Of a stretch of DNA of 64,000 bases, positions 3,074 to 62,509 are shown one piece after another. The translations under genes were made by a program, and so were the position numbers. Origin of the DNA: Minisyncoccota bacterium (GTDB taxonomy: Bacteria > Patescibacteriota > Minisyncoccia > Phycocordibacterales > PALSA-1337). The stretch's first letter is position 1, and each line of letters opens with the position of its first letter. The stretch spans positions 23,037 through 87,036 of the forward strand of contig JBAZBL010000001.1 in NCBI GenBank assembly GCA_041671485.1, in the 5' to 3' direction. The notes below the pieces were generated by a model. The model was not told the DNA's origin. It worked only from the letters and a program-made list of their open reading frames with translations, and did not search any database.

Positions 3074-3103
3074 TTGACTCATATAACATATATCTGCTAA
3101 TAT
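3074..3103 (+). promoter_or_regulatory. Putative sigma70-type promoter (TTGACT - 18 nt - TAATAT) upstream of infA operon
   Basis: TTGACT at 3074-3079 and TAATAT at 3098-3103, about 20 nt upstream of the infA start codon. Confidence 0.4.
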
Positions 3104-3121
3104 ACACAAACGCGCAAAGCG

Positions 3122-4322: not shown

Positions 4323-4328
4323 AATACC

Positions 4329-7756: not shown

Positions 7757-7773
7757 AGGGATGAAACAAGTCG
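7739..7773 (+). repeat. 35-bp direct repeat copy 1 (tRNA-Pro T-loop/3' end plus 17 nt of 3' flank)
   Basis: CGACTCCCGGCAGCCCGAAGGGATGAAACAAGTCG, identical to 7874-7908. Confidence 0.9.
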
Positions 7774-7873
7774 CTAATGCGACTTGTTTAGGGAGGCGAA
7801 AGGGTTTTCGATGTTTGCGAGGACGAGCTTGTCGAGTCCAAGCAAACCGAAAACCACCTGGCGACGTAGTCGC

Positions 7874-7908
7874 CGACTCCCGGCAGCCCGAAGGGATGAA
7901 ACAAGTCG
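7874..7908 (+). repeat. 35-bp direct repeat copy 2 (displaced partial tRNA-Pro 3' end); a third degenerate fragment GTAGTCCGAC at ~7925-7935
   Basis: Exact 35/35 match to 7739-7773. It is preceded by GTAGTC...GCC, which mimics the tRNA variable-loop/T-stem region with a deletion. Confidence 0.9.
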
Positions 7909-7933
7909 TTTTAACGACTTCCTGGTAGTCCGA

Positions 7934-26361: not shown

Positions 26362-26727
26362 TTAGATTCCCAGAACCTGAACCAAATCGTTGAAAAGAAA
26401 TGGCTTATGGATTGTATACTGGGCCCCTACCGAGATTGCGGCCGCAACATCCGCTTTGCCAAGGTCTCCAGACATGAGACATATCTTGGCATCGTCCGGC
26501 AGAAGCTCCTTCGCTTCTCTGATCAGCCTGATACCATTCCCATCTGGATTGATGTTGAGGTCGGTAATGAGGACATCGAACTCTGGATCTCCAGACAAGT
26601 ATTCCAGAGTTTCACTTTCAGATCCAAAATCAACGACATGATGACCCAGTCCTCGAAAACGTATTGCCAACGTGAGACGAAGAAGCTCAGTGTCATCAAC
26701 GATTAGTATCTTTAGTAACTTATTCAT
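26362..26727 (-). CDS. Single-domain response regulator (CheY-like receiver)
   Basis: 121 aa. 'ILIVDDTELLR' and the phospho-acceptor region 'DVLITDLNI'. Confidence 0.85.
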   Translation of the reverse strand: MNKLLKILIVDDTELLRLTLAIRFRGLGHHVVDFGSESETLEYLSGDPEFDVLITDLNINPDGNGIRLIREAKELLPDDAKICLMSGDLGKADVAAAISVGAQYTIHKPFLFNDLVQVLGI

Positions 26728-26797
26728 CGTATTTTTCTCTTTCTTTATCCGAATTTATTTCTTTATCTGTTCTAAAAAGTATGATATCATCATTAAT

Positions 26798-28003
26798 ATG
26801 ATTCGTCAAGACAGAAAAAAGGTATTCATCGGCCTATCTGGAGGAGTAGATAGTGCTGTTTCTGCGACACTATTGAAAAGAGCTGGCTATGATATAACTG
26901 GTGTCTTCATCAAAGTCTGGCAACCAGATTGGATAGAGTGCTCTTGGCGAGAAGATAGGCTCGATGCAATGAGGGTTGCAGCACATCTAGATATACCCTT
27001 CATTACACTAGACCTAGAAAAAGAGTATAAACATGAAGTTATAGATTATATGATAGAGGAATACAAAAGAGGCAAAACACCAAATCCAGATGTAATGTGC
27101 AATCGAACAATCAAATTTGGTGCATTTTATGATTGGGCAATGCAAAATGGTGGAGACTTCGTAGCAACGGGGCACTATGCAAGAATCAGATGCCAGAACA
27201 TTGTCGGCGCTGACTTGTACCTGCGCGAAGCCTTTTCGCCTCACCACTACTCGCGGTTCGGCGAGAAAGGTTCGCTTCGGCACGCGTCAGCACCTGACAA
27301 TGTTAAATATTCTCTATCTATGGGAAAAGACTCAAATAAAGACCAATCGTATTTTCTCTGGACATTGAAGCAGGAACAATTGCCACATATTTTATTTCCT
27401 GTTGGCAATATGACAAAGCCGGAGGTTAGGAAGCTGGCAAAAAGGTTTGATTTGCCAAATGCTGACAAAAAAGACAGTCAAGGACTATGCTTTATTGGCA
27501 AGGTTGATGTAAAAGATTTTCTTTCACATTACATTGAGAGAGAAAGTGGTAATGTTCTAAATATGAATGGTGAAATCATAGGTAAACACCCAGGATCATT
27601 ATTTTTCACTATTGGAGAGAGACATGGTTTTAGTTTAGACAAGAAGACACCAAATGATGAGCCAATGTATGTCGTAGACAAAGACATAGAGCAAAATACG
27701 ATTACTGTCGGGGTGCGATTGGCTCGCGAAGTAAATGTGTCCGACTTGATGAACACTTCATCAGAGCAAATTTCAATTGAACAAGTGAATTGGATTCGAG
27801 GGAGTGTTCCAGAAAATTTCAAGGATAAAATATTCACTGCAAGGACTAGATATAGACAAAGACTCGAAAAAATAAGAATCATTTCTGTAACATTTACTGA
27901 AACAATAATAGAATTTATGGAAAAACAAGAGAATTTAGCTAGTGGACAATCACTTGTTATATATGATGGGGATGAATGTTTTGGTGGGGGAGTGATATCT
28001 TGA
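26798..28003 (+). CDS. mnmA: tRNA-specific 2-thiouridylase MnmA (start at internal ATG; contains ~30-aa in-frame GC-rich insertion)
   Basis: PP-loop 'VFIGLSGGVDSAVSA', 'GHYARI' and 'KDQSYFL'. The ORF track start at 26672 encodes an implausible low-complexity leader. Confidence 0.88.
   Translation: MIRQDRKKVFIGLSGGVDSAVSATLLKRAGYDITGVFIKVWQPDWIECSWREDRLDAMRVAAHLDIPFITLDLEKEYKHEVIDYMIEEYKRGKTPNPDVMCNRTIKFGAFYDWAMQNGGDFVATGHYARIRCQNIVGADLYLREAFSPHHYSRFGEKGSLRHASAPDNVKYSLSMGKDSNKDQSYFLWTLKQEQLPHILFPVGNMTKPEVRKLAKRFDLPNADKKDSQGLCFIGKVDVKDFLSHYIERESGNVLNMNGEIIGKHPGSLFFTIGERHGFSLDKKTPNDEPMYVVDKDIEQNTITVGVRLAREVNVSDLMNTSSEQISIEQVNWIRGSVPENFKDKIFTARTRYRQRLEKIRIISVTFTETIIEFMEKQENLASGQSLVIYDGDECFGGGVIS
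27204..27296. repeat. GC-rich palindromic in-frame insertion within mnmA (~90 bp)
   Basis: GGCGCTGAC...GCGCGAAGCCTTTTCGCC...GGCGAGAAAGGTTCGCTTCGGC...GCGTCAGCACC, with approximately reverse-complementary halves. It encodes 'VGADLYLREAFSPHHYSRFGEKGSLRHASAP' between the conserved GHYAR and KDQSYFL motifs. It is far GC-richer than its flanks. Confidence 0.7.
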
Positions 28004-28010
28004 TAAATAC

Positions 28011-28065
28011 GGTTAACGTCAAGGACTAACCTTACTGTTCCCAAGGTTAGTCCTTGACGTTAACC
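28011..28065. repeat. 23-bp perfect inverted repeat (GGTTAACGTCAAGGACTAACCTT - 9 nt - AAGGTTAGTCCTTGACGTTAACC) between mnmA stop and clpB start
   Basis: Seen directly in the sequence. A collapsed relative (TTACGTCAAGGTTAGTTCTTG) occurs at 31193-31215. It could be a terminator or an operator. Confidence 0.8.
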
Positions 28066-28107
28066 GAACTCCTTCCCCAGCTAGAAAATCTGTGTTATTA
28101 TACTTTT

Positions 28108-30918: not shown

Positions 30919-31002
30919 GCGCAGGTGGCAGAGTGGTCAATTGCAGTGGACTGTAAATCCATCGCCCTATGGGCTCCGGGGGTTCAAATCCCTCCCTGCG
31001 CA
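30919..31002 (+). tRNA. tRNA-Tyr (GTA), class II with long variable arm
   Basis: Acceptor GCGCAGG/CCTGCGC with discriminator A. Anticodon arm GTGGA-[CTGTAAA]-TCCAT. Variable hairpin GCCC-TAT-GGGC. T arm GGGGG-TTCAAAT-CCCTC. Confidence 0.9.
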
Positions 31003-31012
31003 CATGAAAAAA

Positions 31013-31032
31013 CCGAGCAAAGCTCGGTTTTT
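31013..31032 (+). terminator. Rho-independent terminator CCGAGC-AAA-GCTCGG-TTTTT immediately after tRNA-Tyr
   Basis: 6-bp GC stem followed by a T5 tract. Confidence 0.7.
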
Positions 31033-31187
31033 GAGTGGACGCAGAGCAAAGCGCTTGAGCGCTTTGCGTGGAGGGATTTGAAAAGGTCGAGCATATTTTC
31101 GAACCTGAGCGAGCGATCAGCGAGTCGAAGGTGAGAAAATGCGAGACCTGTACAGAGTCTGTAAGACTCAAATCCCTCCCTGCGCAC
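31033..31187 (+). mobile_element. tRNA-3'-end-associated miniature element (copy 1), ending in a 20-bp duplicate of the tRNA-Tyr 3' end
   Basis: The direct repeat TCAAATCCCTCCCTGCGCAC occurs at 30984-31003 and 31168-31187. The left arm ACGCAG-[GC hairpin AGCAAAGCGCTTGAGCGCTTTGC]-GTGGAGGGATTTGAA is antisense to the tRNA 3' end. A ~60-nt core GAAAAGGTCGAGCATATTTTCGAACCTGAGCGAGCGATCAGCGAGTCGAAGGTGAGAAAATGCGA is ~97% identical to 43378-43438. Confidence 0.7.
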
Positions 31188-31219
31188 AAAATTTTACGTC
31201 AAGGTTAGTTCTTGCTGTA

Positions 31220-32389
31220 TCATACAATGACTCTTTTCAAATGTGCTGGTATCTTGACCACTATTTCATAGGGAATAGTGTTGCACTTCTGTGCAATTGA
31301 TATTATTGAATTCTGATCAGAGCTATTGTCGCTTATCACCGTGACTGGTGTATTGATCTTAATATCTTTCACATTTGATACATCAATAGAAGTGATATTC
31401 ATACTCACGTGGCCGATGATGGGGCATGGAATATTATTATCTCCAACCAATATTGTTCCAACATTAGATAGTCTCCTATCCACACCTTCGAAATAACCAA
31501 CAGGTATGGTTGCAATTCGCATATCATTCAATGCTTTGAATGTATTGCCATAGCCAACTGTCTCGCCCTTCTTTATTTGTTTTATACTTGTAATGATAGT
31601 CTTCATCTTGAGAACTGGTAATAAATTGATCTTATGTTCAAATAGATCTCCATCTTTGAGACCATAAAGACCTATCCCTAGTCTTGAAACATTGGACTTT
31701 ATTTTATCCGAAAATTTGTTACCATCTGTATTGCTTATATGAAAATATTTTATGTCAGGAAAAGTTTTCTTGAATTTGTCTACAATACTATTCCAAAGAA
31801 TTATTTGCTTCTGTGTAAAAAAAGTGTCTAGATTATCTGCATCAGATAAGTGTGAAGCAATGCCTTCTATCTTAATATTTTTATTATTCTTTATGATCTC
31901 TATTGCTTGATTTACTTCTTCGGGTAATATACCTTGGCGATGCATACCTGTATCTATCTTCAAATGAATAGGGGATTTGATCTTTTTGTATTTGGATAAG
32001 GCATGAAGTACTTCGACACTACTAACAGTAAAAGAGATATTTTTTAGTCTAGAATTGGCAATCGTTTCTGGGTGAGAATAGCCGATGATAAGTAGTGGAG
32101 TCTTTATACCTTTTGCTCTCAATGCAATTGCTTCAAAATACGAATCGACAACGAAAAATGGTATATCTCCGTTCACGAGGTCCGACCTTGCGGAATTCAA
32201 TATTTGAGCTACCTCTAATAGACCATGACCATAGGCATTACTCTTCAATACGGGGGCAATTTGACCATTTGGCACCAATTTACGGAACTCATTGAGATTG
32301 TCCAATAGGCGACTTTTAGAAATCTCAATAGTTATAAGTGGTTCGTAAGGAAAACATGATTTGGACAAGCTTTTGAGCCATTTTTTCAT
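31220..32389 (-). CDS. alr: Alanine racemase
   Basis: PLP-lysine motif 'APVLKSNAYGHG'. 389 aa with a TIM-barrel plus beta C-domain architecture. Confidence 0.88.
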   Translation of the reverse strand: MKKWLKSLSKSCFPYEPLITIEISKSRLLDNLNEFRKLVPNGQIAPVLKSNAYGHGLLEVAQILNSARSDLVNGDIPFFVVDSYFEAIALRAKGIKTPLLIIGYSHPETIANSRLKNISFTVSSVEVLHALSKYKKIKSPIHLKIDTGMHRQGILPEEVNQAIEIIKNNKNIKIEGIASHLSDADNLDTFFTQKQIILWNSIVDKFKKTFPDIKYFHISNTDGNKFSDKIKSNVSRLGIGLYGLKDGDLFEHKINLLPVLKMKTIITSIKQIKKGETVGYGNTFKALNDMRIATIPVGYFEGVDRRLSNVGTILVGDNNIPCPIIGHVSMNITSIDVSNVKDIKINTPVTVISDNSSDQNSIISIAQKCNTIPYEIVVKIPAHLKRVIV

Positions 32390-32554
32390 AATCTATATTG
32401 TACCCCTCATTTATGGCGAAAACCACCTTGACAGATACTTTGCTATATGCTAGACTATCTTCCAGTTAAACCGAGGCTATAATAGCCTCATTTTCGTTCT
32501 TTTACAGTCGCATATTGTCAGTAAACATAGCTTTTTGCGAGTAGCAAGAAGCGT

Positions 32555-32839
32555 GTGCGAATGTTTGAGGACGATGAACGGAGTATTATGATCCAAAAAC
32601 AAAGATTCATTTTGTCTGTCGCCATGTTGATGGCCCTGGTAGCAGCGCTACTAGTGTTCATCAGCTATCCAAAAGAGGTGGCGCCGGTGATGACTCCGGT
32701 CATCACGAACACGGCTCCTGTAGAGGAGATCGTTGAGACCAACAATGTAGTCACCAATTCCGCGAAAGTGGATGGGGTGATAAACAAAACTGGATCAGTC
32801 TCGGTGACTGGAACAGTTCGTGCAGAGTTCGGGAAGTGA
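32555..32839 (+). CDS. Small membrane-anchored hypothetical protein (GC-rich island)
   Basis: 94 aa. One TM ('FILSVAMLMALVAALLVFI') and a Thr/Val-rich tail. Its GC content is distinctly higher than the surrounding genome. Confidence 0.5.
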   Translation: MRMFEDDERSIMIQKQRFILSVAMLMALVAALLVFISYPKEVAPVMTPVITNTAPVEEIVETNNVVTNSAKVDGVINKTGSVSVTGTVRAEFGK

Positions 32840-32898
32840 AGTGCAGTGCAGAAAACAACAGAAACAAACACAACAAACAGAGAAGAAAGACAACGCAG

Positions 32899-33990
32899 AT
32901 GAAAAAAACACAAATCCTATCGGTAATCTTATCAGTCACACTGCTCGCAGTCGGCGCCTTTGCGCAATCACCTCCAGCTTCTAGCGGTGGTGGTTCGAGC
33001 GGAGGCACGGGGACAATCGTGGTTCCGGCAGATAAAATGCCAACCGCGCTTGCCTTCCTCGGTTCCAAGGCGGCACTACGCGCTTTCGCTCGTGAAAGTG
33101 CAAGGAGCGCGAACTTAAACATCAACTCTGCCGGCATGCAGGGTACATGGGGAACTGGTTCCTCATGGGATTCCCCAAAAAGTCAAGAACAAATCCTTTC
33201 GATAATCAATGCGTGGAGGTTCACCTTCACCATGGAGAATCCAGCGGATTCTGTTCAGGCGACGACGGAAATCAAGAACAGCGACTGGGAGACTCTCTTC
33301 AGCGCGGAGTCTTGGCGGACGCCACAGCTTGTGAGTGGAAGTAGTTACCGATTGCCGGAACTTTACTTCCACTTAACACTGGCGGATATCATCCCATTCA
33401 AGGTTGACAGGTCGGTTCAATGGGGTCAAATCAAGTACCTCAATGACGACGGCAGAACGATCACTACCGTTGACCTTGTTGTCCGGAACGGAAAAGTTTA
33501 TTTCCGATCCGATCTCGCAGGTAAGGGAATTCTCGTCCTGCACAATAACGATGGGAGAACATTCCTGTATAACCTCCGGAATGGTGGAGTACAGGTACCA
33601 GTTGCAAGTGTTCAGTACATGGGGAGTTCCTCGTGGATTGAGAATATGCCATGGTTCAACAACCCAAGCACCATCAATCAGCAGGTCTGGAGCTGGAATG
33701 GTGTTGGCCAAAATCCTACATTCGATGTCAACATGGACTCGAGTGCATGGGTATCGTTCAGGACATATTCCAACGAAGGTGCCGAAGCGATTGGTTTCCA
33801 GGTACGACCACAAGGTGGCACGAACTGGACTTTCTATCCGGTTGTCCTACCTGCCAAGTATGTACCAATCCAACTCACCCCAGGCACCTCGTTTATCATT
33901 CCGGTATGGAATCCGGATGAGTTCAAGGAACCGGAGCCGTACATTCCTGAGAATGGGACGCCGGTGGGTTTCTTCGATGGTAAGGGTTAA
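32899..33990 (+). CDS. Secreted hypothetical protein with signal peptide (GC-rich island); start at ATG 32899
   Basis: 'MKKTQILSVILSVTLLAVGAFAQSP' looks like a signal peptide. It is followed by a Gly/Ser linker and a ~330-aa beta-rich domain rich in W and Y. No family was recognised. Confidence 0.6.
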   Translation: MKKTQILSVILSVTLLAVGAFAQSPPASSGGGSSGGTGTIVVPADKMPTALAFLGSKAALRAFARESARSANLNINSAGMQGTWGTGSSWDSPKSQEQILSIINAWRFTFTMENPADSVQATTEIKNSDWETLFSAESWRTPQLVSGSSYRLPELYFHLTLADIIPFKVDRSVQWGQIKYLNDDGRTITTVDLVVRNGKVYFRSDLAGKGILVLHNNDGRTFLYNLRNGGVQVPVASVQYMGSSSWIENMPWFNNPSTINQQVWSWNGVGQNPTFDVNMDSSAWVSFRTYSNEGAEAIGFQVRPQGGTNWTFYPVVLPAKYVPIQLTPGTSFIIPVWNPDEFKEPEPYIPENGTPVGFFDGKG

Positions 33991-34012
33991 CTGACCCCCG
34001 AATCAGTTTCAT

Positions 34013-35483: not shown

Positions 35484-35534
35484 AAAGTGGCACTCAAGAC
35501 TACTAGAGTCTCGAGTGCCGTGAAGATCTTACCA

Positions 35535-35819
35535 CTAATTGTTGTGTACGCTGGCATTTGCCAATGCCAAGCGTTTCGCAATTGTTTCCGGGTGCCAGTC
35601 AAACGCGAGAGTGGCGCCTGTACCTGGAACAATGATTCTCGCCACAAGAGTCCTTGGATCTCCATGTGCTGGTCCAACTTCAAATGCGAGTTGGCCACAA
35701 TGTCTGAATTCCCTGACAATTTCCTCGAGATGAGGATTGAGGTCAGTTACCATCAAACTCATTGTTGGTAACTCAGAGATGAGCGCATCTAACGCTATAA
35801 GATCAGCCTTCGTTATCAT
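35535..35819 (-). CDS. Hypothetical protein in a GC-richer patch
   Basis: 94 aa. It is convergent with the upstream gene and separated from it by a hairpin (GGCACTC...GAGTGCC at ~35490-35525). Confidence 0.4.
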   Translation of the reverse strand: MITKADLIALDALISELPTMSLMVTDLNPHLEEIVREFRHCGQLAFEVGPAHGDPRTLVARIIVPGTGATLAFDWHPETIAKRLALANASVHNN

Positions 35820-35859
35820 ACGTTTTTAGCTTTTGTGCAGTTTACCTACTAGTATAGTA

Positions 35860-39259: not shown

Positions 39260-41710
39260 TCAAGGATTAACTTCCTTTATTTTCTTTTTGAATCCACGTT
39301 GTTTCTTTTCTTGTGCCAATAACTCTAATGCACGTTCGAATGTAATATTGTAAATATCATCTGGTGCTTTGACTGAACGGAAGTCGCCATCAAGGACGAC
39401 GTATGGACCAAAACGTCCGATCGAAGCTGTAATTTCTTTATTTGTCTTTGGATCTATACCCAATACTTTTGGCAAACTCAAATATTTGAGAGCATCTGCA
39501 ACCGTAACTTTCATAGGATCAGCGTTCTTTGGAATCGAGGCCATCTTTGGTTTAAAATTAGCAACAATTTTATTGGCATCTTGCTCTTCACTTTTCACTT
39601 TTAACTTTTCCCCGCGCGCCAAGCTTCGCCCGGCGAAGCGGGCGGGACTTTTAATCTTTATTTTCCCCTTAATCCTCTCCCCCAACTGCACATATGGTCC
39701 AAATCTTCCATTCAAAACAAATATTGGCAATCCTGTTGTCGGATCTATACCTATAGGTTCATCTTTCTTGAATTCCATACCGTCTATAGTGAGTGCTCCA
39801 TCACAATCGGGATATTTTGAACATGATATAAATTTGCCGTTCTTTCCTAGTTTTATTTCCATAGAAGGACTGCCACATTTCGGACATTTGAACTTTGAAT
39901 CTGCTAAACCAAGATTGGTCAATTTGTCTATCTTTTCTTTGGACTTCACTTCTTTGTGAAATGGTCCATAAAAGTCAGTAAGAGTCTTCAAATATGTACG
40001 TTCACCATTTGCTATTTCATCGAGTTCATTCTCCATCTCTGCTGTAAAGTCATCACTTATATAAGTAGGGAAGTTCTCCTCTAGGAATGTAGAAACAACT
40101 TCACCTATATCGGTCGGCTTTAGAGAGCGACCCTCCTTTTCTACATAACCTCTATCTTCTATAGTCTTTGAAATAGAAGCGTATGTAGAAGGACGCCCTA
40201 TGCCTCTCTTTTCCAATTCTTTGATCAAACCTGCTTCTGTATATCGAGACGGTGGTTGTGTTTGCTTTTCTTCGGAATCAATATTCAAAAGCTTCAATGA
40301 TTCTCCTTTATCACATTTTGGTAAATTAACTTCATCGCCACTTGAATCTGGATCAGCCTTGAGCCAGCCGTCGAATAAAATACGAGAACCATTTGCTTCG
40401 AAGTTTGGGATGCCACCGGCCGCTTCTCCCTCCTCGGCGCGACTAAATGTCTTCGTTTGCTTCGCAAAGTCGACATTTGTCGCCGCCTCGACGGTCGAAG
40501 CGGCCTCCGACGCCGTTCGCGGAGGGAGAATGTTCTCCACCGATTCCAAAATGTTTGCAATAATCTTTGTTTTCGCCAATCTTGCATCTGCCATTTGAGA
40601 AGCAACCGCTCTTTGCCAAATAAGTTTATAAAGACGCTTTTGTTCATCCGTATGTCCAGCAACAGATTTATTGAAATGACTTGGTCTTATAGCTTCATGT
40701 GCTTCTTGAGCATTTTTGCTCTTTGTAGCATATGTTCTTATATGTAGGTAATTTTTGCCATATTCTTTTTCTACCACTTGGCTTATCTGTGCCAATGCTT
40801 GCTCTCCTAGATTCGTAGAATCTGTCCTCATATATGTGATATATCCAGATTCGTACAATTTCTGGGCAATACTCATTGTCCTAGAAGGAGAAAAACCGAG
40901 TCTTGAACTAGCGGTCTGTTGCAAAGTAGATGTTATAAATGGTGCGCGTGGAGATCTCTTTTGTTCTGATTCTTCTATGTCTATGACTTTCCAATCATTC
41001 TTTTTTGCAGTGTCAATTATGTATTCAGCTTCTTCTTTCTTCTTTGGCTCTACAGAACAAGATAGATGCAATTTACCATCTTTTGTAGTCAACCAATCTC
41101 CAGCAATAGTCCAATATGTCTCTGGCTTGAATGCACGGATCTCTCTTTCTCTCTCCATTATTATACGTAGAGCAGGGGACTGGACTCGGCCAGCAGACAA
41201 GCCATAACGAACTTTTTTCCAGATAAGTCCGGAGAGATCATATCCTACTATCCTGTCTAGAACACGACGAGCTTCTTGTGCTTCTTTTAGATTTTCATCT
41301 ATAGGTCTAGGACTTTTGAGAGCTTCCTCTACAGCTTCTTTTGTAACTTCATGATATGTGATTCTCTTTATCTTCGATGCAGGGATCTTGTCATAACCAT
41401 CAGACAAGCCCTTCTTGGTCAGAAGCTCCTTCAAATGCCAAGCTATGGCTTCACCTTCACGGTCTGGGTCGGTTGCAAGAAGTATTTCATCGGCTTTCTC
41501 TGCTTCAATCCTTATTTCATCTATGATAGTTTGCTTCTTTGCTACGACTTCATAGTGGGGTATAAAACCGCCTTCTATATCTACTGCTTTTTTATTGGAC
41601 TTTGGCAGATCACGCACATGACCAACAGAAGCACGTACGATAAAATCTTTTCCCAAATATTTGGAAATAGTTTTTGCTTTTGAGGGGGACTCGACGATCA
41701 GTAGTTTCAT
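39260..41710 (-). CDS. topA: DNA topoisomerase I (with two in-frame GC-rich palindromic insertions)
   Basis: Toprim N-terminus 'LLIVESPSKAKTISKYLG', the catalytic Tyr region, and C-terminal zinc ribbons 'CPKCGS...CSKYPDC'. Confidence 0.92.
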   Translation of the reverse strand: MKLLIVESPSKAKTISKYLGKDFIVRASVGHVRDLPKSNKKAVDIEGGFIPHYEVVAKKQTIIDEIRIEAEKADEILLATDPDREGEAIAWHLKELLTKKGLSDGYDKIPASKIKRITYHEVTKEAVEEALKSPRPIDENLKEAQEARRVLDRIVGYDLSGLIWKKVRYGLSAGRVQSPALRIIMEREREIRAFKPETYWTIAGDWLTTKDGKLHLSCSVEPKKKEEAEYIIDTAKKNDWKVIDIEESEQKRSPRAPFITSTLQQTASSRLGFSPSRTMSIAQKLYESGYITYMRTDSTNLGEQALAQISQVVEKEYGKNYLHIRTYATKSKNAQEAHEAIRPSHFNKSVAGHTDEQKRLYKLIWQRAVASQMADARLAKTKIIANILESVENILPPRTASEAASTVEAATNVDFAKQTKTFSRAEEGEAAGGIPNFEANGSRILFDGWLKADPDSSGDEVNLPKCDKGESLKLLNIDSEEKQTQPPSRYTEAGLIKELEKRGIGRPSTYASISKTIEDRGYVEKEGRSLKPTDIGEVVSTFLEENFPTYISDDFTAEMENELDEIANGERTYLKTLTDFYGPFHKEVKSKEKIDKLTNLGLADSKFKCPKCGSPSMEIKLGKNGKFISCSKYPDCDGALTIDGMEFKKDEPIGIDPTTGLPIFVLNGRFGPYVQLGERIKGKIKIKSPARFAGRSLARGEKLKVKSEEQDANKIVANFKPKMASIPKNADPMKVTVADALKYLSLPKVLGIDPKTNKEITASIGRFGPYVVLDGDFRSVKAPDDIYNITFERALELLAQEKKQRGFKKKIKEVNP
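39596..39653. repeat. 42-bp GC-rich palindromic element (CTTTTCCCCGCGCGCCAAGCTTCGCCCGGCGAAGCGGGCGGG) flanked by 8-bp direct repeat ACTTTTAA, in-frame in topA
   Basis: The direct repeats sit at 39596-39603 and 39646-39653. The element contains the perfect palindrome GCTTCGCC-C-GGCGAAGC. It encodes 'SPARFAGRSLARGE' between KIK and KVK codons. Confidence 0.7.
40424..40530. mobile_element. GC-rich palindromic miniature element (family A, reverse orientation) with 10-bp perfect TIR TTCTCCCTCC/GGAGGGAGAA, in-frame in topA
   Basis: The reverse complement of the inner ~65 nt (CCGTCGAGGCGGCGACAAATGTCGACTTTGCGAAGCAAACGAAGACATTTAGTCGCGCCGAGGAGGG) matches the leuS and infB copies at ~85-90%. It encodes 'STVEAATNVDFAKQTKTFSRAEEGE', paralleling the leuS peptide. 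Confidence 0.75.
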
Positions 41711-43220: not shown

Positions 43221-43304
43221 GCCCGGGTGGCGAAATTGGTATACGCGCAAGACTTAAAATTTTGTAGCCGTAAGGCTGTGTGGGTTCGATTCCCACCCCG
43301 GGCA
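43221..43304 (+). tRNA. tRNA-Leu (TAA), class II
   Basis: Acceptor GCCCGGG/CCCGGGC with discriminator A. Anticodon arm CAAGA-[CTTAAAA]-TTTTG. Variable hairpin TAGCCGTAAGGCTG. T arm TGGGT-TCGATTC-CCACC. Confidence 0.85.
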
Positions 43305-43486
43305 CACTAAAAAATATATAATGATAGACTTATTTGCCCGGGAGCAAGGTGCATTTGCACCTTGCGAGTGAGAATCGAAAAGTCTGAGCATATTTTCGAA
43401 CCTGAGCGAGCGATCAGCGAGTGGAAGGTGAGAAAATGCGAAGACTATACCGTTCCAGTATGGAAAGATTCCCACCCCGGGCACAC
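43305..43486 (+). mobile_element. tRNA-3'-end-associated miniature element (copy 2), ending in a 20-bp duplicate of the tRNA-Leu(TAA) 3' end
   Basis: The direct repeat GATTCCCACCCCGGGCACAC occurs at 43288-43307 and 43467-43486. The left arm TTTGCCCGGG-[GC hairpin AGCAAGGTGCATTTGCACCTTGC]-GAGTGAGAATCGAA is antisense to the tRNA 3' end. The ~60-nt core at 43378-43438 is shared with the tRNA-Tyr copy. Confidence 0.7.
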
Positions 43487-43835: not shown

Positions 43836-45437
43836 TTAACCTACCTTTTCCACCGTCTTCACCGCCTCCACTCTATCTCCAACAGCAATTTCAACTTTTG
43901 CTTCTACCATAACACCAAATTCATGTCCCTCTCTAACTTCACCTGTTCTCATCTTCTTTTCTTGAAGTTCTCTTATCTTACCTCGTCCAATCTCTGCATC
44001 TCTTCTAATTATCTTTACTTCATTTCCAGTCAAAATAGTACCCGTTACAACCTTTCCACCAATAACTTGTTTATCTCTTTCTTTTGAAAATATCGCAAGA
44101 ATCTTGGCGAGGCCAATTGATTCCTCTATATATTCTTTTGGCACTTTTGCCAGTAATGAATCACGAACGAATTGAACCAATTCATATATAACTTTGAATG
44201 TTTTGACATTTACAGAATTGTGCTCGATCACAGCAACAACCTTCTTGTCTGGCATTGAATTGAAACCAATTATTGTAATATTTGGATCACCCATGGCAAT
44301 CTTTACATCATTTTCATTTATATCACCAATACCTTCGGAAACAACCTTTATTTGCACCTTATCATGTTTTATCTTTGCCAATTCATGTTTGACACCATCG
44401 AGACTGCCTATAACATCAGCTTTGATGATAATGGGGAATGAAATAATTTCTGTCTCTGTATTCTCTTCAGAATCAATAGCTGACTTGTTGTCGTCGCCCC
44501 CGTCGCAGGCGGCGACAAATGGCGACTTCGCGAAGCGAACGAAGGCATTTCGTCGCGCCGAGGAGGGGGCGACGACTGAAATCTTATTTACCTCCACCAA
44601 CTTCTCTGCCTCTTTCTTTGTATCAACTATAGTAAATGTACTTCCACAAACAGGTATTTCATTCCAGCCACTAACAATTACAGGCATTGAAGCTATCGCT
44701 CTATCAATCTTTTGTCCTTTGAAATCTTCTATAAAACGAATTGGTGTGTAAGATACACCTGCAACAGCAAATGTACCTATTCCAAGTGTTCCATTTTTTA
44801 TCAATAATGTGGCTTGTATTCCTTTTTGTGTATCCATTTCAGATTCTATGACTATACCTTCTGCAGATTTATCTGGATCTGTTTTGAGATCGGCCAATTC
44901 GGAAATCAAAATAACCATATCCAAAAGTTCTGAAATGCCTTCTCCATTCAAGGAAGAAATTGATACATTTGGAATATCACCACCCCAACCTTCAAGATAT
45001 ACCTCATTCTCGCCCAAACTTTGTTTTGTCTTATTTATATCTGCATTTGGTTTGTCTATCTTATTTATAGCAACAACATAGGGGATTTTTGCATTTTTAA
45101 TTTCGTTCAAAGCTTCTATCGTTTGTGGCTTTACACCATCTTCAGCAGAAACAACCAATATTGCTACATCAGCAGCTTTGGCACCTCTCTCACGGATAGT
45201 ACAAAAGGCTTCATGACCTGGTGTATCCAAAAATGTGATTTCATGTTTATTCCCATCACTACTTATATGCTCTACTTCATATGCGCCAACGTGCTGGGTT
45301 ATACCACCAGCTTCGCCTGCAACTATATTTGATTTCCTGATGAAATCGAGCAGAGTAGATTTGCCATGATCTATATGACCCATAACAACGACTATAGGAG
45401 GCCGCTTTATGCAGTTTTTTGTATTCTTATTTGGCAT
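43836..45437 (-). CDS. infB: Translation initiation factor IF-2 (short form; contains in-frame palindromic element)
   Basis: G-domain 'VVVMGHIDHGKSTLLDFIR', 'DTPGHEAF' and 'NKIDK'. The C-terminal beta-barrel domains are present. Confidence 0.92.
   Translation of the reverse strand: MPNKNTKNCIKRPPIVVVMGHIDHGKSTLLDFIRKSNIVAGEAGGITQHVGAYEVEHISSDGNKHEITFLDTPGHEAFCTIRERGAKAADVAILVVSAEDGVKPQTIEALNEIKNAKIPYVVAINKIDKPNADINKTKQSLGENEVYLEGWGGDIPNVSISSLNGEGISELLDMVILISELADLKTDPDKSAEGIVIESEMDTQKGIQATLLIKNGTLGIGTFAVAGVSYTPIRFIEDFKGQKIDRAIASMPVIVSGWNEIPVCGSTFTIVDTKKEAEKLVEVNKISVVAPSSARRNAFVRFAKSPFVAACDGGDDNKSAIDSEENTETEIISFPIIIKADVIGSLDGVKHELAKIKHDKVQIKVVSEGIGDINENDVKIAMGDPNITIIGFNSMPDKKVVAVIEHNSVNVKTFKVIYELVQFVRDSLLAKVPKEYIEESIGLAKILAIFSKERDKQVIGGKVVTGTILTGNEVKIIRRDAEIGRGKIRELQEKKMRTGEVREGHEFGVMVEAKVEIAVGDRVEAVKTVEKVG
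44490..44576. mobile_element. GC-rich palindromic miniature element (family A) with 12-14-bp perfect TIR GTCGTCGCCCCC/GGGGGCGACGAC, 87 bp (29 codons), in-frame in infB
   Basis: Inner sequence CGTCGCAGGCGGCGACAAATGGCGACTTCGCGAAGCGAACGAAGGCATTTCGTCGCGCCGAGGAGGG. It is in the opposite coding orientation to the leuS and topA copies. It encodes 'SSARRNAFVRFAKSPFVAACDGGDD' in IF-2. Confidence 0.8.
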
Positions 45438-45534: not shown

Positions 45535-46647
45535 ATGCAAACAGCCCTTGTAGTACTCGTTGTAATAGCAGTAATTACCAATATCATTCTAGGTATTGCT
45601 CTTTTCAGGCGAAAAAATAAAGGAGAATATAAATATACTAGTAACAATGATGGATTACAACTCATATTGGAACAGGTCAATGAATTATCACGTACAGTTG
45701 ATCGTAAAGTCGGTGACCTTACAAAAACGGTTGATTCAAAAATGCATGACACTGCAAAAAATATGCAGGAATCAGTCCGCAATCAACTTTCAGAATCTTC
45801 AAAACTTATACGAGAAGTAACAGAGGGTATTACCAAGCTAGACGAGACCAATAAACAAGTAATATCATTTGCAGATCAGTTACAAAACCTTCAGGATATC
45901 CTGAAGAATCCGAAGCAAAGAGGAATATTGGGTGAATACTATCTCGAAACTCTGCTAAAAAATGTCATGCCACCAGGAAGTTATGCTATGCAATATGAAT
46001 TGCCGTCAAAAGAAGAAGATGGCAAAAAAGTGATAGCGGATGCAGTTGTATTTGTGAAAGACAAGATAATACCTATTGACTCCAAATTCTCATTGGAAAA
46101 TTACAATCGTCTTGTAGAAGAAAAGAATCCTATAGAAAGAGACAGACTTGAAAAACTATTCAAAAACGATTTGAAGACAAGGATAGATGAAACATCAAAA
46201 TATATACAACCAGAAAACGGAACTATGGACTTTGCTTTTATGTTTATACCTCATGAAGCTATCTACTATGACCTATTGGTCGCAGAAGTTGGGGGCATGA
46301 AGATAAATACACGAGATCTTATCGAATATGCTTTCAAAGATAGGCATGTACTTATCGTATCACCAACTTCATTCCTGGCATTCTTGCAAACTGTACTTCA
46401 AGGATTAAAAGCATTACAGATAGAAGAAACTGCAAAAGATATAGTAAAGAGAGTAGGTGAGCTAGGCAAACATTTGAAATCATTTGAAGATTTCTACGAA
46501 AAGATGGGAGTACATCTCGGCACTGTAGTCAGTCAATACAATAAAGCTGGTCATGAATTCAAGAAAATAGATAAAGATGTTATGAGGATCACTGGAATAA
46601 GTCCAGAACTAGAAGTCCCACTCATAGAAAAGCCAGAAGTTGAATAA
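45535..46647 (+). CDS. rmuC: DNA recombination protein RmuC
   Basis: N-terminal TM helix followed by coiled coil. The RmuC domain shows 'QRGILGEYYLETLL' and 'MFIPHEAIYYDLL'. Confidence 0.8.
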   Translation: MQTALVVLVVIAVITNIILGIALFRRKNKGEYKYTSNNDGLQLILEQVNELSRTVDRKVGDLTKTVDSKMHDTAKNMQESVRNQLSESSKLIREVTEGITKLDETNKQVISFADQLQNLQDILKNPKQRGILGEYYLETLLKNVMPPGSYAMQYELPSKEEDGKKVIADAVVFVKDKIIPIDSKFSLENYNRLVEEKNPIERDRLEKLFKNDLKTRIDETSKYIQPENGTMDFAFMFIPHEAIYYDLLVAEVGGMKINTRDLIEYAFKDRHVLIVSPTSFLAFLQTVLQGLKALQIEETAKDIVKRVGELGKHLKSFEDFYEKMGVHLGTVVSQYNKAGHEFKKIDKDVMRITGISPELEVPLIEKPEVE

Positions 46648-46676
46648 TTCGGCAGTCCATGTATAATATAGCGACT

Positions 46677-46994
46677 ATGGAATTTGCCATTATTAAAACT
46701 GGTGGAAAGCAGTACAATGTCTCAAAAGGGGACGTTATTACTATTGAAAAGCTTGGTGATACCCAAAAAGAGGGTGATTCTGTTATATTTGACAAGGTTT
46801 TACTAGTTGATGATGGCAAAAATACTACAATTGGTACTCCTTACATTCCAAAAGCACAAGTAAAAGGCACAATCGAGAAGATAGGCCGTGCACAAAAGAT
46901 CATAGTAACTCACTACAAACAAAAGAGCCGTTACTGGAAAAGAAACGGCCACAGACAACATTTCTTCAATGTGAAGATTGATTCGATCAAATAA
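46677..46994 (+). CDS. rplU: 50S ribosomal protein L21 (start at internal ATG 46677)
   Basis: 'MEFAIIKTGGKQYNVSKGDVITIEKL' matches the L21 N-terminus (MYAVIKTGGKQYKV). Confidence 0.88.
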   Translation: MEFAIIKTGGKQYNVSKGDVITIEKLGDTQKEGDSVIFDKVLLVDDGKNTTIGTPYIPKAQVKGTIEKIGRAQKIIVTHYKQKSRYWKRNGHRQHFFNVKIDSIK

Positions 46995-47037
46995 TAATTT
47001 GAAAGGAGTCAAATAAATTGGACCCTTTCAAATAGGG

Positions 47038-47213
47038 TTTGGAGGTGCAAATACAGAAACTCAAACCTGCGTAACTCGCTTGCGTCATTCTCTTGTATTT
47101 TCACAAAAGACTCGACCTCTCGGACATGAACGGCCTCGTCTTTTGGAAAATACTAGTCGAATGACTACGCTCGAACAGTACTCGGTTTGAGTTTCTGTAT
47201 TTGCACCTCCAAA
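47038..47213. repeat. 176-bp element with 30-bp perfect terminal inverted repeats (TTTGGAGGTGCAAATACAGAAACTCAAACC ... GGTTTGAGTTTCTGTATTTGCACCTCCAAA); interior is an imperfect palindrome
   Basis: Arms at 47038-47067 and 47184-47213. The interior halves (GCGTCATTC.../...GAATGAC...GC and TTTTCACAAAAGAC/GTCTTTTGGAAAA) are also roughly symmetric. The element is intergenic between rplU and recR. Confidence 0.85.
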
Positions 47214-47226
47214 CTAAACTTTTCTG

Positions 47227-47838
47227 TCAAAATCGATTCTTCAATGCATTTTTTATCGTATCACTATCTGCATATTCAAGTTCTGAACCAGTAGATAGAC
47301 CTCTCCCTAAAATAGATACTTTTGTCTCTTTTGTATCGATGAATTTTGAGATTGCATCTTTGACTATATTTGTTGTATGTTCACCGTCTGGTGTAGCATT
47401 GAGAGATAGGATTATTTCTTTAGGTTTGGATTCGTCCGATATTCTTTCGAGCAATTCTTTTAGCCTAATTCTCTTGTCTGGTTCTTTGTCGAGAATTGGC
47501 ACGATGCCACCAAGAACAAAATATAATCCTCTATATGCACCACTCTTTTCTATAGATTCAAGATCTGTATCTCTAGCAACTATCATCAATGCCGATACAT
47601 CTCTAGAATTGTCATTGCATATATCACATGTAGTTTTCTTGATACCATTCTCTATAAAAAATCGATGGCATTTATTACATTCATGAGCAAGTCTCTTTAT
47701 AGTCTCTATGAGATATGTAAATTCTTTTGCAAAAGATGGTGGCCTACTCAATACATAATTCACAAAACGCCTAGCTTGTCTCGGTCCAATACCAGGGAAA
47801 TGTGCAAATATTTCTTCTAAACGATGCAACGAATCCAT
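47227..47838 (-). CDS. recR: Recombination protein RecR
   Basis: HhH 'FPGIGPRQARRF', C4 zinc finger 'CNKCHRF...CDIC', and a Toprim domain. Confidence 0.9.
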   Translation of the reverse strand: MDSLHRLEEIFAHFPGIGPRQARRFVNYVLSRPPSFAKEFTYLIETIKRLAHECNKCHRFFIENGIKKTTCDICNDNSRDVSALMIVARDTDLESIEKSGAYRGLYFVLGGIVPILDKEPDKRIRLKELLERISDESKPKEIILSLNATPDGEHTTNIVKDAISKFIDTKETKVSILGRGLSTGSELEYADSDTIKNALKNRF

Positions 47839-47869: not shown

Positions 47870-49261
47870 TCAGTCTTTTGTCTCACTTTTTTCAAAATCC
47901 CCAAATTCTCCTTTGTCCATAGAGAGAAATGTAGTTTTTTTGCTATCAAAATAGAGCTTTGCAATACCAGTAGGACCATTTCTATGTTTTTCGATGAGAA
48001 TATCTGTTTCTTCTTTCTTGCCACCCTGATCCTGATCAATTTCGCGGTGAATGAACATAACAACATCGGCGTCTTGTTCAATAGATCCAGAATCGCGCAG
48101 GTCTGATAGTCTAGGACGGCCACCACGCTGTTCGACAGCACGACTCAATTGTGAAAGTGCCAATACTGGTACTTCGAGTTCACGGGCTAAATTCTTGAGT
48201 GAACGAGAAATCTCTGTTACTTGTTGTACCAAATTGTCATTGTATCTAGCATTGGTAGGTAACATCAATTGCAAATAATCAACAACGATTAGTCCTAGCC
48301 CTTTTTCATTTTTAAGTCTCCTAGCTACAGCTCTCATTTTCAAAATATTATTGCCTGGCTGATCATCTATATATATTGGTGCTTGCGAAAGTCGAGATAT
48401 AGCATCACCAATTGCACGAAAATCATTTTCAACAGATAGATTGTGTCCTGTCCTTATCTTCCAAGAATCAACTTGAGATTCGGCAGAAAGCATACGATCT
48501 ACCAATTGCTGTGAACTCATTTCAAGGGAAAATATTGCAACAGGTACTTTGTGATTGACTGCTGTCTTCCTAGCAATATCGAGTGCTAGGGAAGTCTTAC
48601 CCATAGAAGGTCTTGCTGCAAGAATGATGAGATCTGACTTTTGCAAACCAGACAATTTATTGTCCAGTTCTGGAAAACCTGTTGGCACACCGCGCAATTC
48701 ATCTTTTGTTTTATGGAGATGATCAAGCCTTTCCCATGCTTCGTCCAATGTATCTTTGAGAGCAACGTATTTGTGTGAACCTGTTTTATTTGTTACTGCA
48801 TACAGAGCTTTTTCGGCTTTTTCCAAGACTTCATGTAATTCTGTTTCCTCATCATATCCAAGAATATTTATCTGTTCTCCTGCGTGTAAAAGTTCGCGCA
48901 TAACATGCTTATTTTCTACAATTTCTGCATAGTGATGGGCATTTGCAGATGATGGAACAATATTCACCAACTCTGTGAGATATGTCATACCACCCGCATT
49001 CTCCAATAAATTTTTCTCTTTGAGACGTAAAGATACAGACAGAAGATCTATGGGTATTCCTTTGCCGTGAAGTTCGAAGAGTACTATCCATACAGAGCGA
49101 TTTTGATTGGAATAGAAAGAAGTCTCATGAATAATATCTATGACATCATGCATAACTTCTGGATTCATGAGTATTGATCCAAGAAGAGCTTTCTCCGCAT
49201 CAATACTATGAGGTGGAATTTTGAGGTCTCTGGCTTTTAGAAAAGGGGATACTGTAGACAT
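47870..49261 (-). CDS. dnaB: Replicative DNA helicase DnaB
   Basis: N-terminal DnaB domain 'PHSIDAEKALLGSIL'. Walker A 'ILAARPSMGKTSLALDIA'. The H4 'SQLSR' region is present. Confidence 0.92.
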   Translation of the reverse strand: MSTVSPFLKARDLKIPPHSIDAEKALLGSILMNPEVMHDVIDIIHETSFYSNQNRSVWIVLFELHGKGIPIDLLSVSLRLKEKNLLENAGGMTYLTELVNIVPSSANAHHYAEIVENKHVMRELLHAGEQINILGYDEETELHEVLEKAEKALYAVTNKTGSHKYVALKDTLDEAWERLDHLHKTKDELRGVPTGFPELDNKLSGLQKSDLIILAARPSMGKTSLALDIARKTAVNHKVPVAIFSLEMSSQQLVDRMLSAESQVDSWKIRTGHNLSVENDFRAIGDAISRLSQAPIYIDDQPGNNILKMRAVARRLKNEKGLGLIVVDYLQLMLPTNARYNDNLVQQVTEISRSLKNLARELEVPVLALSQLSRAVEQRGGRPRLSDLRDSGSIEQDADVVMFIHREIDQDQGGKKEETDILIEKHRNGPTGIAKLYFDSKKTTFLSMDKGEFGDFEKSETKD

Positions 49262-53786: not shown

Positions 53787-54059
53787 TTAGACGATACTTA
53801 CTAGTTTCTTTCTATCAATATCGTTATTGAAAGAGATTTTTCTTTTTGTAGCAAATTGGACAGTTCCATCCTTCAAAGCAAAAAGGGTATAGTCTTTACC
53901 CATACCTACATTCCTGCCTGGCAAGACTGTAGTACCACGCTGGCGGACGATTATTTGTCCAGTATTGGCATTTTGGCCATGGTTAATCTTGATACCAAGG
54001 AATTTTGGATTTGAATCGCGACCATTTTTGGTTGATCCTTCTGCTTTACGATGGGCCAT
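53787..54059 (-). CDS. rpmA: 50S ribosomal protein L27
   Basis: '[61 protein letters not shown]' is canonical L27. It is not adjacent to rplU here. Confidence 0.92.
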
Positions 54060-54298: not shown

Positions 54299-54766
54299 AT
54301 GATTGAACTTACAACAGGTGTAATCTTCCTAATGTCATCCCTATACGGCTCTCAACATGCAGATATGCAAGTTGCAAATATTGCAAATGCACAGATGCAG
54401 GACGAAGAAAAAGTAGAGAAGGTGGCAATTGTGAAGATTGTTGATCCAAAAGACATCGAAGCATATATCCGCAAAGAATTTTCTGATAAGCCAATCCTAA
54501 TTGAAATTGCATGGTGCGAATCACGCTTCAGGCAATTCAATGAAAATGGAACAGTAATTCGTGGTGAAAAAAATAGCAAAGATGTCGGTGTGATGCAGAT
54601 CAATGAAAGATTCCATGCCGAAGATGCAGTCGAACTAGGATATAACATATATTCAACACAGGGTAATACAGCATTTGGTAAATATCTTTATGAGAAGTAT
54701 GGAACAGATCCATGGAGCGCGTCCAAGAAGTGTTGGAGTCAGTCGGGTGATCTCGCGAAGAAGTAA
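54299..54766 (+). CDS. Small lysozyme-like / lytic transglycosylase (SLT-like) domain protein
   Basis: N-terminal hydrophobic segment. Catalytic-Glu context 'IAWCESRFRQ' and 'GVMQIN' fit the family-1 lytic transglycosylase pattern. Confidence 0.6.
   Translation: MIELTTGVIFLMSSLYGSQHADMQVANIANAQMQDEEKVEKVAIVKIVDPKDIEAYIRKEFSDKPILIEIAWCESRFRQFNENGTVIRGEKNSKDVGVMQINERFHAEDAVELGYNIYSTQGNTAFGKYLYEKYGTDPWSASKKCWSQSGDLAKK
54639..54766 (+). repeat. 128-bp direct repeat, copy 1 (3' end of SLT-like gene)
   Basis: 126/128 identical to 57332-57459. Similarity continues ~45 bp further downstream into terminator-like hairpins (GGCTCC..GGAGTCTTTTGTT). Confidence 0.9.
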
Positions 54767-57331: not shown

Positions 57332-57459
57332 GATATAACATATATTCAACACAGGGTAATACAGCATTTGGTAAATATCTTTATGAGAAGTATGGAACAG
57401 ATCCATGGAGCGCGTCCAAGAAGTGTTGGAATCAGGCGGGTGATCTCGCGAAGAAGTAA
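57332..57459 (+). repeat. 128-bp direct repeat, copy 2 (orphan 3' fragment of the SLT-like gene; preceded by in-frame stop)
   Basis: It matches 54639-54766 with 2 mismatches. It has no upstream coding continuation. Confidence 0.9.
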
Positions 57460-61608: not shown

Positions 61609-61843
61609 ATGGGTATTATAGCAAGAAAGTATATGAATTTCTTTATGCTAGAGTTATCAACAACAAGTAAATTTGACTATATATATCCAATTTGTTAGTC
61701 TTTAATTAGAAGTATGCAATAATAACTTACGAGGTGCTCCGATGTTCCCTCAGAATATCTGGGGCTTGAGTTGGAGAACACCACCTTGTGAGACGCTACT
61801 TCTAACAAAGAACCCCTTTCCACTTCGGTCAGGGATTTTTTGT

Positions 61844-62509
61844 TTATATTATAATCGATTTTCCATTGAACAATTCCCTCCCCTTTCCAATAATATTTTT
61901 CTTCAGAATTTTGAAACATTCCTCACCTAGTTTTCCTTTTTCAAGATATCGTGCCAAAGCTCCTGCAATCCAGTCGGCAATTTGAATATTCACTACCGCA
62001 GTTGAATCAACCATTTCAATTTGTAAAACTACACCCTTTGGCAAGGATGGTAACAGACGAGCTTTTAGGACTTCCTTGAATTCTGTCTCGGACATACCAC
62101 TCAATCTTCTACGGTCGCAGAAAACACGAAACTCTTTATCAGTTGTCGGTAAATATGATGTTAGTATTTCGCCGACTATATTTGTATATAAAAGTCCGCT
62201 CTGTAATTTATTTTTATGATGATACTCTGCTGGAATATTTCTATGAAGTAAATAGGCAAAATGTATTCGAACATCTAGTTTTGAAATCTCTCTCAAAGTC
62301 TTTAGGCGTAAGGCATCAGAAAATCCGGTACTTGCCCATTTAATCTCACTCAGATCACGCATCTTTCTAGGAAAATGGCCACGAAGCCATGCTCGAAATC
62401 CCTTTGCTGTTCGCCGAACATTGCCAACAGTAAATGAAGCAACAATAAAATAGTTTTTATTACTGTACTTGGAAAATTGTCCACTTTCATCAAGAAAAAT
62501 ATATGGCAT
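61844..62509 (-). CDS. DUF3800-family protein
   Basis: N-terminal 'YIFLDESG' and C-terminal 'IQIADWIAGAL' match the DUF3800 signature motifs. Family membership is recalled from memory. Confidence 0.6.
   Translation of the reverse strand: MPYIFLDESGQFSKYSNKNYFIVASFTVGNVRRTAKGFRAWLRGHFPRKMRDLSEIKWASTGFSDALRLKTLREISKLDVRIHFAYLLHRNIPAEYHHKNKLQSGLLYTNIVGEILTSYLPTTDKEFRVFCDRRRLSGMSETEFKEVLKARLLPSLPKGVVLQIEMVDSTAVVNIQIADWIAGALARYLEKGKLGEECFKILKKNIIGKGRELFNGKSIII

Follow-up and report, generated by a model that had tools for sequence, protein, structure and literature searches.

A lineage-specific 232-bp insertion carrying a 178-bp palindrome between the convergent genes rplU and recR in a Patescibacteria genome

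The rplU/recR junction and its palindrome

The rplU and recR genes converge in the 64-kb window, by which we mean the whole stretch of DNA that was analyzed, and are separated by noncoding DNA containing a long palindrome. On the forward strand, rmuC (45535-46647, assigned by Pfam) is followed by rplU, the gene for ribosomal protein L21 (46659-46994; Pfam PF00829, L21p, E 1.7e-33), and a promoter-like site with 10 of 12 positions matching lies just upstream of rplU at 46640-46667. On the reverse strand, recR (47227-47838; Pfam Toprim_4, RecR_C and RecR_HhH) faces rplU and is accompanied by dnaB (47870-49261, also assigned by Pfam). The RecR protein is recorded as MFA6404543.1 and MFA6974401.1, which NCBI places in a Candidatus Paceibacterota bacterium MAG, a member of the Patescibacteria (Candidate Phyla Radiation). 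The stop codon of rplU (TAA, 46992-46994) and that of recR (TCA as read on the forward strand, 47227-47229) form the left and right borders of a stretch of 232 bp (46995-47226) that alignment with relative L004, described below, identifies as a lineage-specific noncoding insertion. It is composed of 42 nt on the left, a quasi-palindrome of 178 nt and a 12-nt linker on the right.

The quasi-palindrome occupies 47037-47214 and its ends are perfect. An inverted-repeat search returned two arms of 31 nt, 47037-47067 on the left (GTTTGGAGGTGCAAATACAGAAACTCAAACC) and 47184-47214 on the right (the exact reverse complement), that show 100% complementarity and enclose 116 nt, a pair that ranks first in length and perfection among the inverted repeats of the window. 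The arm 31-mer occurs at only two sites in the window, and none of 100 dinucleotide-preserving shuffles matched it. For comparison with the ends of IS elements, the arm-end sequence is GTTTGGAGGTGCAAATAC. The 116-nt interior (47068-47183) is a degenerate palindrome with indels, in which perfect sub-stems of 7-9 bp are found, namely GTCATTC/GAATGAC, GTATTTTC/GAAAATAC and AAAAGAC/GTCTTTT. An earlier note on this DNA, made from the sequence alone, had described a 176-bp element with 30-bp perfect inverted termini and an internally symmetric core; the symmetry of the core and the perfection of the termini hold, but the termini measure 31 bp and the unit 178 bp, one base more at each end. The GC content is 0.46 for the interior and 0.44 for the whole 178-bp hairpin, compared with 0.375 for the window. 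Whereas the outer 31 bp are perfect, the inner half-arms of 58 nt are heavily mismatched and contain indels. A perfect outer stem beside a decayed interior is not explained by simple neutral decay, and homogenization of the arms by template switching could account for it.

A small hairpin with a 10-bp stem and a 17-nt loop (46997-47033) is found in the 42 nt to the left of the palindrome. Overlapping this hairpin on the reverse strand is a 5-bp terminator-like stem that runs from 47038 down to 47022 and has a T-rich tail, CCAATTTATT. On the right, the nonpalindromic 12-nt linker TAAACTTTTCTG (47215-47226) joins the palindrome to the recR stop codon. The longest open reading frame (ORF) contained in the insertion is 36 aa, and a small ORF of at most this length is unsupported as a gene. 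Comparison of the 232 nt with the window by blastn-short returned only the insertion itself, its own arms and chance matches of 9-12 nt. Therefore, the insertion is not derived from the flanking genes or from the rest of the window.

On either strand the palindrome is predicted to fold into a single rod-shaped hairpin of 71-72 pairs. RNA folding of 193 nt gave -91.3 kcal/mol for the forward strand (z -13.6) and -101.4 kcal/mol for the reverse strand (z -14.0), and none of 200 shuffles was as good in either case. Folded as DNA, the palindrome gave -55.8 kcal/mol (z -12.4). Among 2553 sliding windows of 193 nt (mean -37.7 kcal/mol, standard deviation 10.1 kcal/mol), the palindrome is the second most stable. 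The suggestion in the earlier note that the whole unit can form one hairpin, there put at about 80 bp, agrees with the predicted rod of about 72 pairs, and its structural description of something far beyond a typical terminator also stands. The reverse-strand fold is better by 10 kcal/mol and contains four G-U pairs, as opposed to one on the forward strand, which may be a weak hint of strand-specific pairing as RNA.

Inverted repeats of length equal to or greater than k confuse de Bruijn assemblers, and so the insertion could conceivably be an artifact of assembly or amplification, such as an inverted chimera. Indeed, Logan contigs from two other runs (SRR18595301 and SRR6484324) contain recR, the 12 nt and the arm, and end exactly at the end of the arm. 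A break at this point is to be expected, because an assembler working with k=31 should stop at a 31-bp inverted repeat, and the same two contigs confirm the junction between recR and the arm in further runs. Moreover, the same 232 nt are found in the same place in L001, an independent assembly from ENA that matches the window with 100% identity across 550 nt, and the interior symmetry is imperfect with indels, which is not what a chimera would produce. An artifact is therefore extremely unlikely. In three other samples the insertion is either identical or at least present and, as far as these sequences indicate, it is fixed in the population.

The junction in relatives and the search for further copies

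The closest relative on record is L004 (Logan run SRR22216446), with a RecR protein that is 94% identical and flanking DNA that is 90% identical at the nucleotide level. In L004 the gene order is the same, and the stop codon of rplU directly abuts that of recR with 0 nt between them (...AAATAA followed by TCAAAC...). Alignment of the window with L004 shows a single clean gap of 232 nt that corresponds to 46995-47226, and the ambiguity in the placement of its junctions is at most 1 nt. In L006, a more distant relative with a RecR that is 69% identical, 1 nt separates the two stop codons, and at the P0004 locus (RecR 71% identical) they are 33 nt apart. Other relatives carry a small ORF without a Pfam match between the stop codons, of 147 aa at the P0005 locus (RecR 68%) and of 99-109 aa at the P0033 loci (RecR 70%). 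These ORFs show no similarity to the insert of the window and contain no long inverted repeats. The unrelated small ORFs of the P0005 and P0033 lineages indicate that the rplU/recR junction tolerates insertions. Given that the junction measures 0, 1 and 33 nt in L004, L006 and P0004, respectively, the parsimonious reading of these alignments is that the 232 bp were gained in the lineage of the window. Relatives chosen by their RmuC protein (82-87% identical) are uninformative on the junction, with rmuC located beside gyrA or a DUF892 gene and not beside rplU. In L004, a gene for a PemK-family toxin lies between rmuC and infB (2874-3260); it is absent from the window, a further small difference in gene content between these sister lineages.

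No hairpin is found at the junction in L004, in L006 or at the loci with small ORFs. Therefore, any function that the hairpin may have would be dispensable, as these relatives manage without it. The earlier note had named, as a combination that would speak against its own proposal, a sequence that is single-copy genome-wide and a conserved but unrelated hairpin at this place in relatives. As far as can be seen the element is indeed single-copy, but the relatives have no hairpin at all, related or otherwise.

The same note had pointed out that the element sits where rpmA, the gene for ribosomal protein L27, would be expected to follow rplU, and that comparison of rplU-rpmA synteny in relatives could be telling. 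That rpmA is located elsewhere in the window is correct (53787-54059, reverse strand). However, the arrangement of dnaB and recR facing rplU and rmuC is kept in the relatives, and in none of them does rpmA occupy this site; in L004, L006, P0004, P0005 and P0033 rpmA never follows rplU. Because rpmA is also absent from the site in these relatives, the comparison indicates that the hairpin did not displace it and that the separation of rplU and rpmA is ancestral in this clade, so that the element is not its cause.

In order to look for further copies within the same genome, about 70.5 kb were available, consisting of the 64-kb window and about 6.5 kb of adjoining Logan contigs that were reached via the proteins at the window edges. 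The element is present once in this stretch. Searches of large collections were likewise negative. No two-armed match was detected for an arm 19-mer in 185,579 GTDB species-representative genomes, for an arm 20-mer in JGI metagenome contigs or for an arm 18-mer in IMG/VR, and none of these three collections includes the window's own copy. Since the collections lack that copy too, they are silent on copy number in this genome. In total, the scans with arm pieces returned 19 loci from GTDB, JGI and IMG/VR, all of them one-armed chance matches that do not reach the full 31-mer, and those inspected resemble coding sequence, such as a recurring phage gene. A two-arm pattern (12 + 12 nt, separated by a gap of 139-169) gave no match in IMG/VR, and neither did two 21-mers from the interior. 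Distant-mode blastn returned no match among PLSDB plasmids and nothing meaningful among INPHARED phages, where one 31-nt match had an E value of 0.8. The 178-nt hairpin was also compared with Rfam 15, including the models for 6S RNA, and showed no overlap with any family at the gathering threshold or at E values up to 10. Weak Rfam matches of about 12 bits were seen to the left of the hairpin at 46964-47031, partly in the left part of the insertion.

Origin of the insertion

Given the observed structure of the insertion and its absence from the relatives and from the databases searched, our tentative reading, which we hold to be quite possible rather than established, is that it is an orphan palindromic insertion, either a foldback-type element or an imported intergenic spacer, that now acts as a two-way barrier at the 3' ends of the two genes or is merely tolerated. 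According to this reading, 232 bp of noncoding DNA would have been gained by one lineage exactly between the convergent stop codons of rplU and recR, and the palindrome would most likely have come ready-made, in the form of a foldback-type mobile element or of a spacer recombined in from an unsampled donor. The insertion is probably of foreign or mobile origin, a conclusion reached solely by exclusion, because the searches turned up neither a second copy nor a donor nor any relative of the sequence. A much more specific form of this idea, and a long shot, is that Patescibacteria harbor a family of foldback-type mobile elements, sampled here for the first time, whose members enter zero-length convergent stop-codon junctions without duplicating their target and are carried as a hairpin-forming single strand. 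If that were true, such an element, once fixed, would provide two abutting genes with a ready-made two-way transcription insulator.

Bacterial MITEs are defined by terminal inverted repeats, the lack of a transposase and a length that is generally below 200 bp but reaches about 400 bp, together with flanking direct repeats and the existence of multiple copies or of an IS with the same ends, and they fold into long RNA stem-loops (PMC3184786). The earlier note had proposed a MITE as one option, and in its build the element conforms well to this definition, with inverted termini of 31 nt that are 100% complementary, a length of 178 bp, no transposase gene (the longest ORF in the insertion being 36 aa), an intergenic location and a long stable stem-loop of -91 or -101 kcal/mol (z about -14). 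It is also present in one and absent from another of two lineages that differ by about 10% in DNA. Considered as a classical MITE, the element would be a nonautonomous transposon with 31-bp ends that is mobilized in trans by a transposase encoded elsewhere and exists in several copies, and such copies could be located outside the roughly 70.5 kb searched, in what is probably more than 85% of the genome. However, neither a duplication nor further copies were found in the sequence searched. We searched for target-site duplications of 2-12 bp, at offsets of 0-3 nt and for both the 178-bp and the 232-bp boundaries, and found none; in particular, no direct repeat of at least 2 bp abuts the 178-bp unit. 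The pentamer TCAAA, located 3 nt off the left junction, was considered as a duplication and rejected, as it belongs to the coding sequence of rplU and differs synonymously from L004. It is unlikely that a flanking duplication was once present and has decayed, because the arms are still perfect. Furthermore, the gap relative to the empty site is 232 bp and not 178 bp plus a duplication, which leaves the extra 42 + 12 nt without an explanation. The element is present only once in the 70.5 kb, the neighboring genes include no transposase according to Pfam, and no 18- to 20-mer of the arm was found in two-armed form in the 185,579 species-representative genomes, the JGI metagenomes or IMG/VR. We therefore do not class the element with the MITEs, to which it corresponds only in architecture, and we consider a classical MITE doubtful.

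The resemblance to known MITEs is nonetheless close in several respects. Correia/NEMIS elements of Neisseria, ERIC, RUP and Chunjie share with the element inverted termini of about 26-31 bp, a length of 100-200 bp, the lack of a transposase, a quasi-palindromic organization of the whole, an intergenic location and presence or absence between close strains (PMC3184786). The RNA stem-loop of Chunjie, at about -98 to -130 kcal/mol, is comparable to the hairpin described here (PMC3184786). Unlike those families, no duplication, further copies or IS with matching ends were found for the element at the rplU/recR junction, which also comes with 54 additional nonpalindromic bases.

A different explanation is that the palindrome arose or grew at the site itself when template switching or fold-back priming copied one arm from the other around an older imperfect hairpin. 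Creation and extension of perfect hairpin stems by template switching have been documented (PMC8794818 and PMC5941160), and the contrast between the perfect outer 31 bp and the mismatched, indel-bearing inner half-arms of 58 nt, which uniform decay would almost never produce, fits such a process, as does the lack of a target-site duplication, which would be expected. In quasi-palindrome correction, too, a perfect extension surrounds an older imperfect hairpin and no duplication is left; however, most documented events of this kind involve only a few bases to tens of bases, whereas here all 232 nt are new relative to the nearest relative. L004 lacks the whole of the insertion, interior included, the arms are unlike rplU, recR or any other sequence of the window, and no intermediate state is known. 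As the interior is missing from L004 and the arms match nothing in the window, the starting material would still have to come from elsewhere, and growth of the palindrome in place is an unlikely account of the insertion.

We give hardly any credence to an invertible switch or other site-specific recombination site, whether an inverton, an attC-like or a dif-like site. The 31-bp inverted repeats and the roughly 116 bp that they flank fall within the size range of invertons, but inversion of a palindromic interior would change little, no promoter-like site lies inside, no recombinase is encoded among the neighbors according to Pfam, and the element lies between the 3' ends of two genes. For the cruciform-forming recombination site that the earlier note had listed as an option, the analysis offers evidence neither for nor against. 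Integron attC sites occur within integrons and have an R'' box (RYYYAAC) at the 5' side and an R' box (GTTRRRY) at the 3' side, with a stem that is imperfect and contains extrahelical bases. The termini of the palindrome, GTTTGGA...TCCAAAC, are in the reverse order, and GTTTGGA does not fit GTTRRRY; with its outer stem perfect and no integrase among the neighboring genes, the element was rejected as an attC site. A replication terminus or dif site was rejected because the maximum of the cumulative GC skew lies near 35 kb and not at 47 kb. Elements derived from IS200/IS605 carry distinct subterminal hairpins on the left and right, have no terminal inverted repeats, make no duplication and rely on a TnpA/TnpB partner. 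The missing duplication fits this description, but one symmetric rod with true inverted arms and neighbors without TnpA or TnpB do not, and this assignment was also rejected. A retron was dismissed on account of a mismatched architecture and the lack of a partner gene nearby.

Possible roles of the hairpin and other structured sequences in the window

In our favored reading of an orphan palindromic insertion, a plausible role of the hairpin, based on its position and predicted fold, is that of a two-way 3' barrier for rplU and recR. A transcript of rplU from its own promoter-like site would run into the hairpin, where a short transcript would end, and a transcript of recR would enter the hairpin from the other side. 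Since the element is part of the 3' untranslated region of rplU and of recR alike, each of the two transcripts would fold it into the same rod of about 72 bp. Such a rod should keep transcription from continuing in antisense through the opposite gene and should stop 3'-to-5' exonucleases, and its perfect duplex of 31 bp is of the type that RNase III cleaves. NEMIS hairpins are processed by RNase III. Alternatively, the junction may be one of the few positions in a compact genome that can take up an insertion without damage, and the element may do no more than persist there.

Beyond the stem, the forward strand continues with UAAACUUUUCU and the reverse strand with CCUAUUUGAAAGG, and no U run follows directly after the stem on either strand. 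Therefore, the hairpin is not a canonical intrinsic terminator, nor is its stem short. A terminator scan called only a small internal stem and the reverse-strand stem at 47038-47022, and not the large hairpin. Bidirectional intrinsic terminators between convergent genes are similar in that a symmetric hairpin is common to two facing transcripts; however, the stem described here is about 10 times longer than needed and is not directly flanked by a U-tract or A-tract. REP, SPRITE and NEMIS-type repeats accumulate between convergent genes, and roles like those considered here, such as a hairpin at the 3' end of transcripts, stabilization of mRNA and termination, have been proposed for them (PMC3184786). 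The element resembles REP/BIME and SPRITE palindromes in its position between convergent genes, its inclusion in 3' untranslated regions and these proposed roles (PMC3184786), but REPs are 20-40 bp long and SPRITEs are short terminator-like units, both GC rich and present in tens to hundreds of copies, whereas here a single unit of 178 bp is found. With this length, a GC content of 0.44 and a single copy in the window, membership of the REP/BIME class was rejected.

A structured RNA was another option put forward in the earlier note, and it finds no support in Rfam. The corresponding alternative is that the insertion is an independent gene for a structured noncoding RNA acquired by the lineage, for instance a rod-shaped regulatory RNA similar to 6S. 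A length of about 180 nt, a rod-like shape with internal loops and a GC content above that of the surroundings, as is seen for RNA genes in AT-rich genomes, are compatible with such a gene, and the reverse-strand fold, with its advantage of 10 kcal/mol and four G-U pairs against one, is a weak hint in the same direction. Nevertheless, no Rfam family is matched even at E values up to 10, no promoter-like site is located inside or beside the element, the sequence is absent from L004 at this locus, and there are no homologues in which covariation could be sought. In addition, a perfect duplex of 31 bp is atypical of a functional RNA and typical of a repeat at the DNA level. Taken together, an independent RNA gene is decidedly improbable.

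The genomes of Patescibacteria are very compact, often leaving no spacer between convergent genes, and how transcription ends at such places is poorly understood. A junction of 0 nt in one lineage and of 232 nt in its sister lineage is a natural test case for read-through and for the mRNA stability of rplU and recR. As a single orphan locus without relatives, the element is of limited general importance, and the other small palindromic or structured insertions of the window, which are unrelated in sequence to the 178-bp hairpin, may be the more rewarding thread. Their presence suggests that small noncoding insertions are a recurring feature that contributes to genome change in this lineage, and because they recur here, the prior for a mobile arrival of the 178-nt unit is modestly raised.

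One of these is a palindromic repeat, rich in GC and about 67 nt long, that is found in three copies, 89-93% identical, at 22261-22327 and 44500-44567 on the forward strand and at 40425-40494 on the reverse strand. All copies lie inside ORFs, namely a 1201-aa ORF, infB and the gene for topoisomerase I, and a further copy is located in L004 at 4267-4333. At the repeat, IF-2 of both the window and L004 carries about 22-25 extra residues that are absent in the relative L039, and between the window and L004 the amino acids differ though the DNA repeat is 97% identical. This arrangement resembles the palindromic elements that are found in frame in Rickettsia. Three tRNA genes (with ends at 31002, 43304 and 7756) are followed by structured inserts of 135-185 nt, at 31003-31219, 43305-43485 and 7757-7933, each of which ends in a copy of the tRNA 3' end: 30984-31004 is repeated at 31168-31188 and 43288-43306 at 43467-43485, and for the third, 7739-7785 resembles 7874-7920. 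A 65-nt core that is 94% identical is common to two of these inserts. Fold z-scores of -7.7 and -4.8 were obtained. The tRNA inserts resemble duplicated attachment sites of the kind that a miniature or decayed integrative element leaves behind.

Several further features of the window were observed. At 28010-28066, 6 nt past the stop of the ORF at 26672-28003, a perfect 24-bp stem closes a loop of 9 nt, with no T-run after it; this hairpin, again unusually long and perfect and located at the 3' end of a gene, counts among the small structured insertions mentioned above. A DUF3800-V motif of Rfam is present on the forward strand at 61708-61803, with 82.6 bits (gathering score 37.4), and adjoins a DUF3800 gene on the reverse strand (61844-62509); the motif contains the point, 61786, at which two independent Logan contigs are interrupted. 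Between another pair of convergent genes, a 376-nt intergenic region (35484-35859) folds with a z of -5.1 and matches no Rfam family, and from this predicted fold it may hold an unannotated structured RNA. The region from 32000 to 34000 reaches a GC content of 0.47, compared with 0.375 for the window, and has very low folding energies at 32600-33170; it contains no Rfam match and is overlapped by an ORF of 384 aa. Finally, a direct repeat of 128 nt, 98% identical, occurs at 54639-54766 and 57332-57459, 2.7 kb apart, and its first copy covers the 3' end of a gene with an SLT domain.
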